The notes under the pieces: model-generated
The model's database searches: none
What the model was told of the DNA's origin: nothing
The model's input: the letters and a program-made list of their open reading frames with translations, nothing else
DNA from: Escherichia coli
GTDB taxonomy: Bacteria > Pseudomonadota > Gammaproteobacteria > Enterobacterales > Enterobacteriaceae
Direction: 5' to 3' (one strand)
NCBI RefSeq assembly: GCF_003019035.1
Contig: NZ_CP027447.1
DNA: 64,000 nucleotides
Part shown: piece by piece, positions 4,794 through 56,042 of the stretch
Layout: every line of letters starts with the position of its first letter
Position numbering within the stretch: the stretch's first letter is position 1
Position numbers and translations under genes: made by a program

Positions 4794-5789
4794 ATGCAGC
4801 CCAAAATTTACTGGATTGATAACCTGCGAGGGATAGCGTGTTTAATGGTGGTGATGATTCACACCACTACCTGGTATGTGACCAATGCTCATAGTGTTAG
4901 CCCCGTCACATGGGATATCGCCAATGTTCTGAATTCTGCCTCTCGTGTCAGCGTGCCGCTATTTTTCATGATTTCCGGCTATCTCTTTTTTGGCGAACGC
5001 AGCGCCCAGCCGCGCCATTTCTTGCGTATCGGCTTATGTCTGCTTTTTTATAGCGCAATCGCACTGCTCTACATTGCGCTGTTTACCTCCATCAATGTAG
5101 AGATAGCGCTTAAAAACCTGCTGCAAAAGCCTGTTTTTTACCACTTATGGTTTTTCTTCGCGATTGCGGTGATTTATCTGGTTTCACCGCTGATTCAGGT
5201 GAAGAACGTCGGCGGTAAAATGTTGCTGGTGCTAATGGTGGTGATTGGCATCATCGCTAATCCAAATACTGTGCCGCAGAAAATCGACGGTTTTGAATGG
5301 CTGCCAATTAACTTATATATCAATGGCGATACTTTTTACTACATCCTGTATGGCATGTTGGGGCGCGCCATTGGCATGATGGACACACAGCATAAGGCAC
5401 TGTCGTGGGTGAGCGCCACACTGTTTGTTGCGGGGGTATTTATTATCTCTCGCGGGACATTATATGAATTGCAGTGGCGCGGAAATTTTGCCGATACCTG
5501 GTATCTTTACTGTGGGCCGATGGTTTTTATCTGCGCAATCACGCTATTGACTCTGGTTAAAAACACGCTGGATACACACACTGTTCCCGGGCTTGGGCTG
5601 ATATCACGCCATTCTTTAGGTATATACGGTTTCCATGCATTGATTATCCATGCGCTGCGTACCCGGGGGATTGAGCTTAAAAACTGGCCAATACTCGATA
5701 TTATTTGGATCTTTTGCGCGACGTTGGCAGCGAGTTTGTTACTTTCTATGCTGGTACAACGAATCGACAGAAACAGACTAGTGAGTTAA
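4794..5789 (+). CDS. wecH: Acyltransferase-3 family integral membrane O-acetyltransferase (WecH/YiaH)
   Basis: 331-aa multi-pass membrane [23 protein letters not shown]... Confidence 0.85.
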
Positions 5790-34675: not shown

Positions 34676-34950
34676 ATCCCTGCCCTTCCATGATTATACA
34701 CACGATACACACAATTAGTGATAACAATCACGATAGCGCGATTTATATGGGCCGTCAGGGGGATAAAGTTGACTCAGGAATGCCGCTCGGAAGAAGAATA
34801 ACGGTGTGCAGTAACTTGTTGAAAAGATGCGAGGAGACTCGTAATTAAGTTCAATCAATATTCAGTCATTCAAGACGTAGACATTTGAATTGGTAAAACG
34901 CGTAAGCGTCGCATCAGGCAATGAATACCCAATGCGACCAGCTTCTTATA

Positions 34951-49040: not shown

Positions 49041-50332
49041 CAGGGAAAGATCACGTAACGCTGCTTTTTTGTACTAAACAATTCGCATTTTATGTTTAAA
49101 AATTGAGATATTCCTCATTACCTGAAGCTGTTTTTTATTGCTTATACATGATCAAATACTCCTTACATAATTAAGGAGAACAAAATGGTACTTAAAAAAT
49201 TGATGGAACATATTTCTATTATCCCCGATTACAGACAAGCCTGGAAAGTGGAACATAAATTATCGGATATTCTACTGTTGACTATTTGCGCCGTTATTTC
49301 GGGTGCAGAAGGTTGGGAAGATATAGAGGATTTTGGGGAAACACATCTCGATTTTTTGAAGCAATATGGTGATTTTGAAAATGGTATTCCTGTTCACGAT
49401 ACCATTGCCAGAGTTGTATCCTGTATCAGTCCTGCAAAATTTCACGAGTGCTTTATTAACTGGATGCGTGACTGCCATTCTTCAGATGATAAAGGCGTCA
49501 TTGCAATTGATGGAAAAACGCTCCGGCACTCTTATGACAAGAGTCGCCGCAGGGGAGCGATTCATGTCATTAGTGCGTTCTCAACAATGCACAGTCTGGT
49601 CATCGGACAGATCAAGACGGATGAGAAATCCAATGAGATTACAGCTATCCCGGAACTTCTTAACATGCTGGATATTAAAGGAAAAATCATCACAACTGAT
49701 GCGATGGGTTGCCAGAAAGATATTGCAGAGAAGATACAAAAACAGGGAGGTGATTATTTATTCGCTGTAAAAGGAAACCAGGGGCGGCTAAATAAAGCCT
49801 TCGAGGAAAAATTTCCGCTGAAAGAATTAAATAATCCAGAGCATGACAGTTACGCAATTAGTGAAAAGAGTCACGGCAGAGAAGAAATCCGTCTTCACAT
49901 TGTCTGCGATGTCCCTGATGAACTTATTGATTTCACGTTTGAATGGAAAGGTCTGAAGAAATTATGCGTGGCAGTCTCCTTTCGGTCAATAATAGCAGAA
50001 CAAAAGAAAGAGCCCGAAATGACGGTCAGATATTATATCAGTTCTGCTGATTTAACCGCAGAGAAGTTCGCCACAGCAATCCGAAACCACTGGCACGTGG
50101 AGAATAAGCTGCACTGGCGTCTGGACGTGGTAATGAATGAAGACGACTGCAAAATAAGAAGAGGAAATGCAGCAGAATTATTTTCAGGGATACGGCACAT
50201 CGCTATTAATATTTTGACGAATGATAAGGTATTCAAGGCAGGGTTAAGACGTAAGATGCGAAAAGCAGCCATGGACAGAAAGTATCTGGCGTCAGTCCTT
50301 GCGGGGAGCGGGCTTTCGTAATCTTTCCCTGC
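49041..50332 (+). mobile_element. ISAs1-family insertion sequence (Rhs-associated H-repeat), apparently intact, with 15-bp terminal inverted repeats and a 9-bp direct target duplication CCGGTGTAC
   Basis: Terminal repeats CAGGGAAAGATCACG (49041-49055) and CGTAATCTTTCCCTG (50317-50331); flanking CCGGTGTAC at 49032-49040 and 50333-50341. Confidence 0.8.
49185..50321 (+). CDS. ISAs1-family (H-repeat-associated) transposase
   Basis: 378-aa [29 protein letters not shown]... recognised as an H-rpt / ISAs1 transposase. Confidence 0.9.
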
Positions 50333-50335
50333 CCG

Positions 50336-51109
50336 GTGTACACGCCGGCGCGAAAAATCCACCTGTACCACTGCGACCATCGCGGCCTGCCGCTGGTGCT
50401 TATCAGCACGGAAGGGGCAACAGCGTGGTACGCAGAATATGATGAATGGGGCAACCTGCTGAATGAAGAGAACCCGCACCAGCTGCAGCAGCTCATCCGC
50501 CTGCCGGGTCAGCAGTATGATGAGGAGTCCGGCCTGTATTACAACCGCCACCGCTATTATGACCCGCTGCAGGGGCGGTATATCACTCAGGATCCAATTG
50601 GGCTGAAGGGGGGATGGAATTTTTATCAGTATCCGTTGAATCCGATAACTGATATTGACCCGTTGGGATTAGCGACCTGTTTATACAGCATAACTTTAGG
50701 TATGCTTTCATGCGTTTCAGATACGCCAAGTGATGATAATTCTTATGGTGTGCTTACTATTTCAGTCGCCTCTGATAATAATGGTAATAATATGCAATGT
50801 AAAAATAATCCTGGTTGTACACACTTACAAAATAGAGGCCCAATACCTCAAGGGGTATGGAGCTGGAATGTTAATGGTCCTGGAGCAACCAATAGAAAAC
50901 CTAATGGTATACGTTTAGTACCGTCAGCAAATACAGAAACGTATAATCGTGATGGATTTTTAACACATAGTTGTTTAAACGCTTTTGGTCCATCTTTAGG
51001 ACCTCGATTCTGTTCCGAGGGTTGTATAACTGGTTCATCTAATGACATGCAAAAATTAAATGAGCTAATATTTTCAGAGCCAGATAGCACATTAACAGTG
51101 ACGGACTAG
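50336..51109 (+). CDS. Orphan Rhs C-terminal fragment (yibJ-like): last ~110 aa of the Rhs core through DPLGL plus a 145-aa alternative toxin tip with an L,D-transpeptidase-like Cys motif; GTG start in the ORF track
   Basis: N-terminal 110 aa nearly identical to RhsA residues ~1070-1180; tip contains H...SEGCITG. Confidence 0.8.
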
Positions 51110-51113
51110 AAAT

Positions 51114-51635
51114 ATGGCAAGGTTATTAACAATTGTGCTTTTTTTCTCTATTTCTGCGAATGCAGTTACTGTAAACCAATTTCAGAGAGAGTTGGATTTG
51201 GCAGACAAGGCAATATTATGGGCACTAATATCAGCCAGTACCCAAGAGGGACGAAAAGCGTGTTCACTTAGCTATTTTTCATGTAAAGCCGCAGAGGCTG
51301 AACTCGGACTGGCATATATGGCTGCTAATGATAACAAGGCATTTCTCACATCCTTATCTAGAATAATGATGTACAAAATAGATGCTGGACTTTCCGAATC
51401 CTATACATGCTATTTATTAAGCAAGGGAAAGATCATAAGACCATATCTGAAGAATCTAAATCCACACCAACTTGTCGCTGATTGCATTGAAACTGTAAAT
51501 AAAATAAAAGATAAAAATAAAAAAATCATTGATATAGATTCAGTTAATATTTGCAATGATAATAAAAATATAAATTGGAGAGTTAATAGTACTATTGTAG
51601 CCATTGATGATTCTATAAAATGCATCGATGAATAA
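51114..51635 (+). CDS. Putative immunity protein for the orphan Rhs tip, with cleavable signal peptide (predicted periplasmic)
   Basis: 173-aa AT-rich ORF 4 bp downstream of the orphan tip; N-terminus MARLLTIVLFFSISANA-VT. Confidence 0.5.
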   Translation: MARLLTIVLFFSISANAVTVNQFQRELDLADKAILWALISASTQEGRKACSLSYFSCKAAEAELGLAYMAANDNKAFLTSLSRIMMYKIDAGLSESYTCYLLSKGKIIRPYLKNLNPHQLVADCIETVNKIKDKNKKIIDIDSVNICNDNKNINWRVNSTIVAIDDSIKCIDE

Positions 51636-52091: not shown

Positions 52092-53228
52092 TCAATGATC
52101 CAAATAAAGATAATGCATCCAGCTGGTCATTCTTAGCAGCACTTTCCGCATCACCGAAACATGGCTGAAATGGTCGGAGTAAACTGCCACCTGGGCGTAG
52201 ATGCCGTCGGGTAAAGCATCGATATCATCGTTAGGGTCCAGTTCAATGGTTCCCAGCACACCGTCCGTGCCGGGCACGACCGTTAATGATTGCAATACCC
52301 CTTGCGCCTGATACGAACCGCCTGGCACGACAGGTAAAATACTAGTCAGTTTGCCGTGGAACACCTGCCCAGGTAGCGCGTTAAACACCACTTCCGCATC
52401 ATCGCCGGGTTTCAGACGTAACAGCGAGTTCTGCCGAAATTGGGCGACAATTTGCCGTTTTTGCTCGGGGATGAAAACCATCACCGGACGTAGCGGCAAG
52501 GCAGCTGCGTATGTACCTGGGCGGATCAGTACCTGAGTGACGTAGCCATTGCTCGGTGCGCGAATGACAGTCTGCTCAAGGTTATATTTTGCTTCAGTAA
52601 GTTGCGCTCTTAAGCTCACAATCTGCGACTGCTCGCCGTTAACCATACTGTCGAGCTGGCTCTGGATCTGCGCCTGCTCCGCCACCGAGCCTTTCACCAG
52701 CGCGTCCTGCGCGAGGAAGTTTTGCCGCGCATCGTCGATGTCACGTTCCGAGAACGGATTCACTGCCGCCTGGCTGCCTATCAGGTAACGTTGATAATTT
52801 TTAAACAGACGGTCGCGCTCCGCTGAAACCTGGGTGGTGTTGGCCTGCGCTTCAGTGAGCTGCGCGCGCAGCGTCTTTATATTATGCGTCGCCGTCATCA
52901 GGTCAGCCTGAAGTCTGTCAACTCGCGCCTGGTAACGAACCGGGTCGAGCTTAAAAAGCACCTCGCCCTTCTGAATAAGCTGATTATTTTTGTCGGTGAC
53001 TTCAGTAACAATTCCCGTCACCTGTGGCGTGATGGGGATCGCTATCACTGCCTTTTGCGCGGTAAAAGTGTAAGGGTGGTTGTAGTTCATCAACAAAATC
53101 AAACCACTCACCAGAAACACGCCTCCCAGCGCCGCCGTCGCCAGCGTCCACTGATTTACCGGAATGCGGAAGATTTTAAAGACCGCCCACGCCAGCGCCA
53201 CGTAAGTTAAAACAATCAATAGATCCAT
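52092..53228 (-). CDS. yibH: HlyD-family membrane fusion protein
   Basis: 378-aa ORF with N-terminal TM segment and coiled-coil region. Confidence 0.9.
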
Positions 53229-53230
53229 AT

Positions 53231-53593
53231 TTAGATCTCCGGGAACGTGGAATAGTCAGTCTTTTTCTCGGCGGCGAGTTGATGCTCCAGCCGGGAAATT
53301 CGGTCAGAAAGTGCGGCGATTTCCGGGTCAGTCGCTTTCTCCTGCGACGCAACATGTGACTGCATGCCCCAGCCGCGCTCCGGTTGGTAGAGCGTCGCCC
53401 AAATCCACAGGAACGGCCAAATTACATGGAGGGTAAAAAGGCTCACCCAGCCCGCAGTATGGATCGCATCGGCATGGGGATGATTACGCTTTTTGGCAAT
53501 CAGATAAGGGATGTCATGTATCGCGATGATTCCATAAAAAATCACCAGAAAGACGAAGATCAGCACTCCCAACGCGAAGTAGTTTAGAAACAT
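53231..53593 (-). CDS. yibI: DUF3302 inner membrane protein; start at internal ATG ([11 protein letters not shown]...)
   Basis: ORF 53231-53695; known 120-aa protein starts at 53593. Confidence 0.85.
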
Positions 53594-53769
53594 ATCTGCC
53601 TCGGATTCACGTTTATCAGTGTTGTTTTTGGCTGGCAGCCAGATGGGAGTCGGGCTGATATTTTGACAATAATCCGGGTTGGCGATTCTCGCCATAACAC
53701 CGAAGAATAATTTTTAGAGGTGATGAGTTGCTTAGTTACATAACGATTTTATGACGAAGGCATAACATG

Positions 53770-53985
53770 CTGCAGATCACATCAGGTGAACGCCGTAAGA
53801 AAATATCTTGTGATTCAGATCACAAAGATTCAACAAACTAACAAAACAAAAATGTGACATTACTCACATTTAAATGCCATTTTTAGCGAAAATCGCCGCC
53901 TTGTTGCTTTTTTACACAAGAGTTTTGTGATGCACATCACGTCAATTACCTCTCTACCCCCTATATTTATGTGATTCATATCACA
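53770..53985 (+). promoter_or_regulatory. mtlA promoter/operator region with a cluster of CRP-type palindromes
   Basis: TGTGATTCAGATCACA (53808-53823), TGTGACATTACTCACA (53852-53867), TGTGATGCACATCAC (53925-53939), TGTGATTCATATCACA (53969-53984). Confidence 0.65.
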
Positions 53986-54128
53986 CAAAAAGCCGTCGAC
54001 TGGACAGTTAACCGATTCAGTGCCAGATTTCGCAGTATCTACAAGGTCCGGCTACCTCTGCCGCCACATTAACAAAAAACCTCGGGCTTCCAGCCTGCGC
54101 GACAGCAAACATAAGAAGGGGTGTTTTT

Positions 54129-56042
54129 ATGTCATCCGATATTAAGATCAAAGTGCAAAGCTTTGGTCGTTTCCTCAGCAACATGGTGATGCCAAATATC
54201 GGCGCGTTTATCGCGTGGGGTATCATCACCGCGTTATTTATTCCAACTGGGTGGTTACCGAACGAAACGCTGGCGAAGCTGGTCGGGCCGATGATCACTT
54301 ATCTCCTGCCGCTGCTGATCGGTTATACCGGTGGTAAGCTGGTAGGCGGCGAACGTGGCGGCGTAGTCGGTGCCATTACCACCATGGGCGTTATCGTCGG
54401 CGCAGACATGCCGATGTTCCTCGGCTCTATGATTGCAGGTCCGCTGGGCGGCTGGTGCATTAAGCACTTCGACCGCTGGGTAGACGGTAAGATCAAATCC
54501 GGTTTTGAAATGCTGGTGAATAACTTCTCCGCAGGCATCATCGGGATGATCCTCGCTATTCTGGCATTCCTCGGCATTGGCCCGATTGTTGAAGCCCTGT
54601 CTAAAATGCTGGCGGCGGGCGTTAACTTCATGGTTGTCCATGACATGCTGCCGCTGGCGTCTATCTTTGTTGAACCGGCGAAAATCCTGTTCCTCAACAA
54701 CGCTATTAACCACGGTATCTTCTCGCCGCTGGGTATTCAGCAGTCCCATGAACTGGGTAAATCCATCTTCTTCCTGATTGAAGCTAACCCAGGTCCAGGT
54801 ATGGGCGTGCTGCTGGCGTACATGTTCTTTGGTCGTGGTAGCGCTAAACAGTCTGCGGGCGGTGCGGCAATCATCCACTTCCTGGGGGGTATCCACGAAA
54901 TCTACTTCCCGTATGTGCTGATGAATCCGCGTCTGATTCTGGCCGTTATCCTCGGCGGTATGACTGGCGTATTCACGCTGACTATCCTGGGCGGTGGGCT
55001 GGTTTCTCCGGCATCTCCGGGTTCTATCCTTGCTGTACTGGCGATGACGCCAAAAGGTGCTTACTTCGCTAACATCGCGGGTGTGTGTGCGGCGATGGCA
55101 GTCTCCTTCGTTGTCTCTGCTATTTTGCTGAAAACCAGCAAAGTGAAAGAAGAAGATGATATTGAAGCTGCTGCGCGTCGCGTTCAGGAAATGAAAGCTG
55201 AGTCTAAAGGCGCGTCTCCGCTGTCTGCGGGCGATGTAACTAACGACCTGAGCCACGTACGTAAAATCATCGTTGCCTGTGATGCCGGTATGGGTTCCAG
55301 TGCGATGGGCGCAGGCGTGCTGCGTAAGAAAATTCAGGATGCAGGTCTGTCGCAGATTTCGGTCACTAACAGCGCGATCAACAACCTGCCGCCAGATGTG
55401 GACCTCGTCATCACTCACCGTGACCTGACCGAACGCGCTATGCGCCAGGTTCCACAGGCACAGCATATTTCGCTGACCAACTTCCTCGACAGCGGCCTGT
55501 ACACCAGCCTGACCGAACGTCTCGTTGCTGCCCAGCGCCATACTGAAAACGAAGTGAAAGTGAAAGACAGTCTGAAAGACAGCTTTGACGATTCCAGTGC
55601 TAACCTGTTCAAGCTAGGCGCGGAGAACATCTTCCTCGGTCGCAAAGCGGCAACCAAAGAAGAAGCGATTCGTTTTGCTGGCGAGCAGCTGGTGAAAGGC
55701 GGTTACGTTGAGCCGGAATACGTTCAGGCGATGTTGGATCGTGAAAAACTGACCCCGACTTATCTGGGTGAGTCTATCGCGGTGCCACACGGTACGGTTG
55801 AAGCAAAAGATCGTGTACTGAAAACGGGCGTGGTGTTCTGCCAGTACCCGGAAGGCGTGCGCTTCGGTGAAGAAGAAGATGACATTGCCCGTCTGGTGAT
55901 TGGTATTGCTGCCCGTAACAACGAGCACATTCAGGTTATCACCAGCCTGACCAATGCGCTGGATGATGAGTCCGTCATCGAGCGTCTGGCACACACCACC
56001 AGCGTGGATGAAGTACTGGAACTGCTGGCTGGTCGTAAGTAA
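54129..56042 (+). CDS. mtlA: PTS mannitol-specific EIICBA component
   Basis: 637-aa [34 protein letters not shown]... Confidence 0.97.

Follow-up and report, generated by a model that had tools for sequence, protein, structure and literature searches.

Five-site CRP array upstream of mtlA in Escherichia coli: a very probable activation module and MtlR-docking operator built around a conserved four-site frame

The closest described system is the mannitol (mtl) control region of Escherichia coli K-12. Five CRP sites are reported for this region (Ramseier & Saier 1995, Microbiology 141:1901). Lee et al. (2026, NAR, PMC13421365) place their mapped centres at -262.5, -219.5, -175.5, -102.5 and -58.5 from the S1-mapped transcription start, that is, at a spacing of 43/44/73/44 bp, with published core matches of 7/10 for CRP1 and 10/10 for both CRP2 and CRP3. 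They class the promoter as Class III CRP-dependent, and report that CRP is essential for mtl transcription (PMC13421365). Once CRP2, CRP4 or CRP5 is replaced in the chromosome, mtlD is no longer expressed and the cells no longer grow on mannitol; without CRP3 the effect is small, and without CRP1 there is none (PMC13421365). For the action of the remote sites, looping and anti-silencing are put forward by the authors as hypotheses only (PMC13421365). A ChIP-seq study of strain H10407 (Haycocks et al. 2015, PMC4287617) found two CRP peaks in the yibI-mtlA intergenic region, with called sites corresponding to CRP1 + CRP2 and CRP4 + CRP5, CRP1 being listed as a MEME site under its peak. CRP binding at the mtl sites of E. 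coli strains other than the one analysed here is documented by EMSA (PMC13421365) as well as by this ChIP-seq (PMC4287617).

The mtl repressor, MtlR, has no domain for binding DNA; it exerts repression as a bridge between two CRP dimers placed 43-46 bp from each other (PMC13421365). In EMSA it supershifts only DNA with two CRP dimers at a spacing of 43-46 bp, with an optimum at 44-45 bp (PMC13421365). The CRP2-CRP3 pair (44 bp) binds MtlR in this assay, and neither a CRP3-CRP4 fragment (73 bp) nor the malK array (34 bp) does; binding was created by lengthening the malK spacer to 44 bp or by shortening the 73-bp gap to 44 bp (PMC13421365). The MtlR interface mutants R167E and L178A lose repression, and the MtlR-CRP-DNA structure in that study is a predicted one (AlphaFold3 model; PMC13421365). 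The MtlR-(CRP)2-DNA ternary complex, with relief of repression by dephospho-EII-Mtl, is published for K-12 and Salmonella (PMC13421365). MtlR is held at the membrane by dephosphorylated EII-Mtl, and glucose takes priority over mannitol because dephospho-HPr competes with the EII-Mtl-MtlR interaction (PMC13421365).

A dense Class III array of a sugar-uptake regulon is also known from the malEp-malKp divergent region, which has three to four tandem CRP sites. The malK sites are 34 bp apart and recruit no MtlR unless their spacing is raised to 44 bp, which is the spacing of the mtl pairs. MalT, the specific regulator of the mal region, binds DNA itself. At deoP2 and other CytR promoters, as at mtl, a specific repressor contacts a pair of CRP dimers on the DNA and hides the surfaces through which they activate. 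However, CytR is a DNA binder of the LacI family whose operator is situated between the CRP sites, whereas MtlR reads the spacing geometry only. In the pap operon a CRP site at -215 is needed for activation in a helical-phase-dependent manner, and Lee et al. (2026) cite it as a precedent for the mtl CRP2 site at -219.5 (PMC13421365). In the pap system this one remote site acts in concert with Lrp and PapI, while the mtl system uses a four-site frame with a length (161 bp) fixed across Enterobacterales.

The mtl locus analysed here lies in a 64-kb stretch of E. coli DNA (hereafter the window). A pattern search of the whole window for TGTGA-N6-TCACA with at most one mismatch returned six matches against 1.76 expected, four of which are located inside one 177-bp span upstream of mtlA. 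They are CRP2, TGTGATTCAGATCACA (TGTGA-TTCAGA-TCACA, 53809-53824, centre -219.5, 19.9 bits); CRP3, TGTGACATTACTCACA (TGTGA-CATTAC-TCACA, 53853-53868, centre -175.5, 15.3 bits); CRP4, TGTGATGCACATCACG (TGTGA-TGCACA-TCACG, 53926-53941, centre -102.5, 17.9 bits); and CRP5, TGTGATTCATATCACA (TGTGA-TTCATA-TCACA, 53970-53985, centre -58.5, 18.7 bits). Three of them match all ten core bases and CRP4 matches nine, as the preliminary description of four near-consensus sites had it. That description had placed them within about 180 bp upstream of mtlA; they are indeed packed into 177 bp, but counted from the mtlA ATG (54129) they are 144-320 bp upstream. By the pattern search and the coordinates, the centres are 44/73/44 bp apart. 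The 16-mers fall into one repeat family in an independent repeat search. Each has a two-fold symmetric core of 16 bp with a 6-bp centre, a score in the range of sites bound in vivo, and a promoter location.

The scores were obtained with a symmetrised CRP matrix (PWM) built from 103 ChIP-seq 16-mers of E. coli H10407 (PMC4287617). The four sites from the yibI-mtlA region were left out of the training, so that the scoring of the mtl sites is not circular. CRP2 is the top-scoring match of the whole 64-kb window, and CRP2-CRP5 together occupy ranks 1 to 4. Such a matrix scan had been proposed at the outset, with the array to be doubted if most sites fell below threshold; the four sites proved to be the best four of the window (15.3-19.9 bits), all of them above the 75th percentile of the training sites (14.8 bits; median 13.0 bits). 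The runner-up matches, at 4895-4910, 34717-34732 and 53028-53043 (13.1, 13.0 and 12.1 bits, respectively; the last within yibH), may be due to chance, since about one match of at least 13 bits is expected per 64 kb.

One may ask whether the palindromes arose by chance, or as repeat-element copies, and are devoid of any regulatory role, given that the region is A+T-rich and that short palindromes are common in intergenic DNA. An exact calculation, with which a Markov simulation agrees, gives 0.15 expected matches of at least 15.3 bits per 64 kb, and the chance of finding three further ones within 177 bp of a given one is about 1e-11; the density that had been called unusual is borne out by this figure and by the clustering of four of the six window matches. 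The similarity between the sites stops at the 16-mers. The cores are conserved across orders while the intervening DNA is scrambled (among the matches listed), and CRP ChIP-seq peaks lie on the sites (PMC4287617). We give this reading no credence. The origin of the array from a duplicated 117-bp module was also considered and rejected, the likeness between the two pairs being confined to the 16-mers. Separately, a 28-nt direct repeat with 75% identity is found at 53727-53754 (GTTGCTTAGTTACATAACGATTTTATGA) and 53903-53930 (GTTGCTTTTTTACACAAGAGTTTTGTGA). Its copies are 176 bp apart, the second extends into the left half of CRP4, and the repeat may be fortuitous.

A weak fifth site, CATGCTGCAGATCACA (CATGC-TGCAGA-TCACA, 53766-53781, centre -262.5), overlaps the start of the interval 53770-53985 and had been overlooked in the preliminary description. 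It matches seven of the ten core bases and scores 9.8 bits, between the 5th and 25th percentiles of the training sites. Eight matches of this score are expected in 64 kb, so it is not significant alone, and 0.07 are expected in the intergenic region. We identify it as CRP1 because its position, centred 43 bp from CRP2, and its 7/10 match both agree with the published CRP1.

The comparison with the mapped mtl promoter sites, made with the coordinates, spacings and core-match counts given in the main text of PMC13421365, bears out the expected correspondence: spacing and core counts in the window fit the published CRP1-CRP5. The four strong sites are CRP2-CRP5, since their centres are 44/73/44 bp apart as published. 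The four palindromes are the well-studied CRP sites of the E. coli mannitol operon. The K-12 operator is at the same locus and has the same site order, cores, 43/44/73/44 spacing, promoter and leader; the 3' 130 bp are identical. The window allele differs from K-12 at nine positions across the array, with no indels and no difference in the 50 core bases. Five of the differences fall in the N6 centres of CRP1 (one), CRP3 (one), CRP4 (two) and CRP5 (one), and CRP2 is identical in both (core versus N6 substitutions, Fisher p = 0.006). No functional difference of the window allele from K-12 is expected. The 601 bp surrounding the array were found in 5404 of the 5426 complete E. coli genomes, several strains being 100% identical.

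In an identical RefSeq record the gene order is yibH and yibI (minus strand), then mtlA, mtlD and mtlR (plus strand). By the annotation of the identical stretch, mtlA (54129-56042, plus strand) encodes the mannitol PTS enzyme IICBA, with Pfam domains EIIC, IIB and EIIA_2. With coordinates transferred from the same annotation, mtlD (56137-57285, plus strand) codes for mannitol-1-phosphate 5-dehydrogenase. The RefSeq-annotated mtlR (57285-57872, plus strand; Pfam PF05068 MtlR, E = 2e-66) encodes the repressor that docks on CRP pairs, and the MtlR of the window has both of the residues that contact CRP, R167 and L178. YibI carries a DUF3302 domain (Pfam), and the yibI-mtlA intergenic region is 535 bp long. 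Further out, upstream of yibH, the segment at about 49600-51635 has in the identical strain an ISAs1-family transposase, an RHS core fragment (pseudogene), a Tlde1-domain protein and an Imm57-family immunity protein, forming an Rhs/T6SS-type toxin-immunity islet that adjoins the mtl locus.

With the published site centres placed on the window, the mtlA transcription start would be at about 54036 (+/-1), followed by a 93-nt 5' untranslated leader (54036-54128, plus strand). A putative -35 hexamer, TGGACA (54001-54006, plus strand), is suggested by the published centres relative to the S1-mapped start and by its fixed distance from CRP5 (information content, IC, 0.83 bits). It is followed by a putative extended -10 element (TG-n-CAGATT, 54021-54029, plus strand), placed by comparative alignment and the published centres, in which the TG (54021-54022) precedes a weak hexamer CAGATT (54024-54029) with three of the six consensus bases; the spacer between the two hexamers is 17 bp. 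In the alignment, the counterpart of the Escherichia -10 region is TGnTAGAGT for Yersinia, Serratia and Erwinia. Among the matches listed, both elements lie at a constant distance from CRP5, and the length of the mtlA leader differs between species. A consensus promoter/terminator scan of 53500-54200 gave only one hit of each type, each of them minus-strand and no better than chance; the weak CRP-dependent mtlA promoter escaped it, the -10 element there being too weak for such a scan, as expected of an activator-dependent promoter. An Rfam scan of 53300-54400 gave no family match, and nothing there suggests an MtlS-like antisense RNA or leader element. The region has the Class III features of five CRP sites, a weak sigma-70 promoter and a proximal site at -58.5, which differs by 3 bp from the -61.5 that is canonical for Class I. 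The segment AGTTAACCGATTCAGT (54006-54021), located between the -35 and -10 elements, is moderately conserved in Enterobacteriaceae among the matches listed. It resembles Cra (FruR) operator half-sites (consensus TGAAAC/GTTTCA). Cra is reported to repress mtl, and both Fis and Cra are reported to bind the mtl control region.

In Lee et al. (2026) the operator architecture was examined in only four other species (PMC13421365). We searched reference genomes with a degenerate DNA pattern encoding a conserved 20-residue MtlA peptide, a choice independent of the upstream DNA, and fetched at least 120 mtlA loci. Of these, 110 had 450 bp or more of upstream sequence and were scored with the CRP matrix over up to 700 bp each; the sampled species are phylogenetically non-independent. 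All counts that follow are among the matches listed. Four sites are present in 60 of the 61 Enterobacterales loci: 53 at 44/73/44, six at 44/72/44 or 44/74/44, and one (Edwardsiella) at 44/63/44. Nine of the ten Aeromonadales loci have the frame at 45/73-74/43-44. The 26 Vibrionales loci are divided into three with the frame, 12 with only a 43-46 bp pair and 11 with no such pair at 10 bits or more. The nine Orbales loci have a single proximal pair only (43-44 bp), and the two Pasteurellales loci have sites at 40/44.

Upstream of mtlA, sites scoring 12 bits or more have a density of 5.0 per kb, compared with 0.017 per kb over the remaining 830 kb of the same loci, with sharp peaks of pair spacing at 44, 73 and 117 bp (among the matches listed). 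Many Vibrio mtlA upstream regions among those listed (e.g. L003, L013, L024, L057, L069, L070 and L077) show a recurrent frame of 51/117/43. As 117 equals 44 + 73, the equivalent of CRP3 is weak or lost there, and an extra site lies 51 bp further upstream. Outside the mtlA upstream regions, the sole strong 43-46 bp pair in the 830 kb among the matches listed is found in Rahnella inusitata (locus L035, 11428-11488), where the CRP-type sites TTTGACGAAGTTCACA and TGTGATTCGGTTAACA are 45 bp apart. This pair precedes a second polyol-type PTS operon (EIIA_2, EIICB, zinc alcohol dehydrogenase), about 6 kb from mtlA, which could be a second MtlR target.

Conservation by position was measured on an ungapped stack of the 53 exact 44/73/44 species among the matches listed. 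In this stack the core IC per position is 1.75, 1.63, 1.68 and 1.63 bits for CRP2, CRP3, CRP4 and CRP5, respectively, against 0.40-0.55 bits for the N6 centres and 0.39-0.69 bits for the spacers, and the spacer sequences are essentially unrelated between genera (among the matches listed). The core of CRP1 reaches 0.24 bits across the same 53 listed Enterobacterales species. CRP1 as a fifth member conserved throughout the order was rejected on this value and on its presence, among the matches listed, only in Escherichia and some near relatives. CRP1 is thus a lineage-restricted addition, in keeping with the experiments in which it proved dispensable. Between CRP5 and the coding region 20 distinct distances are seen among the matches listed, ranging from 174.5 to 314.5 bp; indels are thus frequent beside the array and absent inside it.

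The sites CRP1-CRP3 might be thought to serve the divergent yibIH genes and not mtlA, as they lie in the shared 535-bp region and the ChIP-seq table assigns the CRP1/CRP2 peak to yibI, an assignment made by proximity only (PMC4287617). However, 47 of the 57 four-site loci with at least 1.5 kb of upstream sequence have no divergent yibI (among the matches listed), which indicates that the array travels with mtlA. With CRP2 mutated in the chromosome, both mtlD expression and the ability to grow on mannitol are lost (PMC13421365), and the consensus scan of 53500-54200 gave no promoter-like site facing yibI near CRP1-CRP3. We regard service of yibIH in place of mtlA as exceedingly unlikely; a secondary effect of the array on yibI in E. 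coli is possible.

The array contains three pairs within the MtlR-docking range of 43-46 bp: CRP2-CRP3 (44 bp), CRP4-CRP5 (44 bp) and CRP1-CRP2 (43 bp). It can be argued that the array is a pure multi-site activator, its 44-bp pairing having nothing to do with MtlR. CRP is indeed essential for mtl transcription with several sites each required, and activation alone could conserve a fixed helical phase; moreover, an earlier study from the same group as Lee et al. (2026) detected no MtlR-CRP interaction, and the malK CRP array did not titrate MtlR there. Against these points stand the restriction of the MtlR supershift to 43-46 bp, with engineered spacings that create or destroy binding, and the loss of repression in vivo by MtlR interface mutants (PMC13421365). 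Furthermore, in lineages without the four-site frame a 43-45 bp pair directly upstream of mtlA persists: among the matches listed, every one of the nine Orbales and the two Pasteurellales loci has one, and 15 of the 26 Vibrionales loci have one or more. We consider activation alone, with no part for MtlR in the pairing, an improbable account.

Three non-CRP blocks are found at fixed positions in the 53 Enterobacterales species among the matches listed: AAAAATAT (53799-53806) just 5' of CRP2, AACAAA (53832-53837) in the middle of the CRP2-CRP3 spacer, and a T-run plus ACAC (53906-53917) 5' of CRP4. The AACAAA block reaches more than 1.8 bits per position in those listed species. Fis binding and DNA bending are among the roles that these blocks could have. 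Their conservation over the 53 listed species, together with the reported binding of Fis and Cra and with the precedent of CytR between tandem CRP sites at deoP2, could suggest that each pair is a sandwich of the CytR type, where an extra DNA-binding protein reads the spacer blocks and MtlR acts through that protein. Yet purified CRP, MtlR and DNA suffice for the supershift, an arbitrary insert giving the malK array a 44-bp spacer works as well, and MtlR repression is unaffected by deletion of cra or fis (PMC13421365). The blocks are also absent from Aeromonas and Vibrio, which retain the frame (among the matches listed). An intermediary protein of this kind seems very unlikely.

Taken together, the five-site array (four strong sites and a weak one) in front of a weak sigma-70 promoter is very probably a CRP activation module combined with an MtlR-docking operator. 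The sites, their scores and spacing, the K-12 identity and the frame conservation were computed here; binding, the need for individual sites and sequestration are taken from the literature. At high cAMP, CRP dimers would occupy the sites, and recruitment of RNA polymerase, of the Class I kind, would fall to the dimer at CRP5. The dimers further upstream would also be needed, probably through the shape of the DNA, since each CRP bends it sharply; this architectural role is one that we infer. The 44-bp spacing would orient two CRP dimers so that an MtlR dimer can bridge both. When mannitol is missing, MtlR on the CRP pairs would mask the activating surfaces of CRP; when mannitol is present, dephosphorylated MtlA (EII-Mtl) would sequester MtlR at the membrane and the operon would be expressed. 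With glucose, dephosphorylated HPr would displace MtlR from MtlA and repression would return. The initial proposal of multi-site catabolite control of the mannitol operon is therefore correct, but gives half the picture, as the docking role for MtlR was missed along with the weak CRP1.

The 73-bp gap between CRP3 and CRP4 is the only part of the array not fully explained by published work. It is exact in 62 of the 72 four-site frames and 72 or 74 bp long in eight more (among the matches listed), which makes it no less invariant than the 44-bp gaps. At 10.5 bp per turn, 73 bp corresponds to 6.95 turns (nearly in phase) and 44 bp to 4.19 turns. Its length is fixed across the Enterobacterales, the Aeromonadales and the few Vibrionales with the frame, while its sequence is scrambled (among the matches listed). 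A gap that stays fixed while both its sequence and the distance to the gene vary points to one rigid nucleoprotein assembly. The whole four-site frame, and not just its two 44-bp pairs, may accordingly form the functional unit, a rigid assembly of four CRP dimers that alternates between states with and without two MtlR dimers and whose DNA path is needed for activation from -219.5; we hold this at even odds. The comparative data favour a geometric constraint acting on the whole 161-bp frame, which we infer and which is not a demonstrated mechanism.

Published work already covers the sites, how many there are, what they do and what the 44-bp spacing means; the five-site mtl control region has long been described, and the rationale for its spacing appeared in 2026. 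The array is useful mainly as a positive control, a real and dense regulatory array having been recovered by reading nothing but the sequence. The present analysis adds the survey of 110 mtlA upstream regions, wider than the four other species published. Among the matches listed, it is the four strong sites, and not CRP1, that make up the frame conserved to the base pair over at least two orders. The survey thereby gives comparative support for selection on the geometry of the whole array, including the 73-bp gap.
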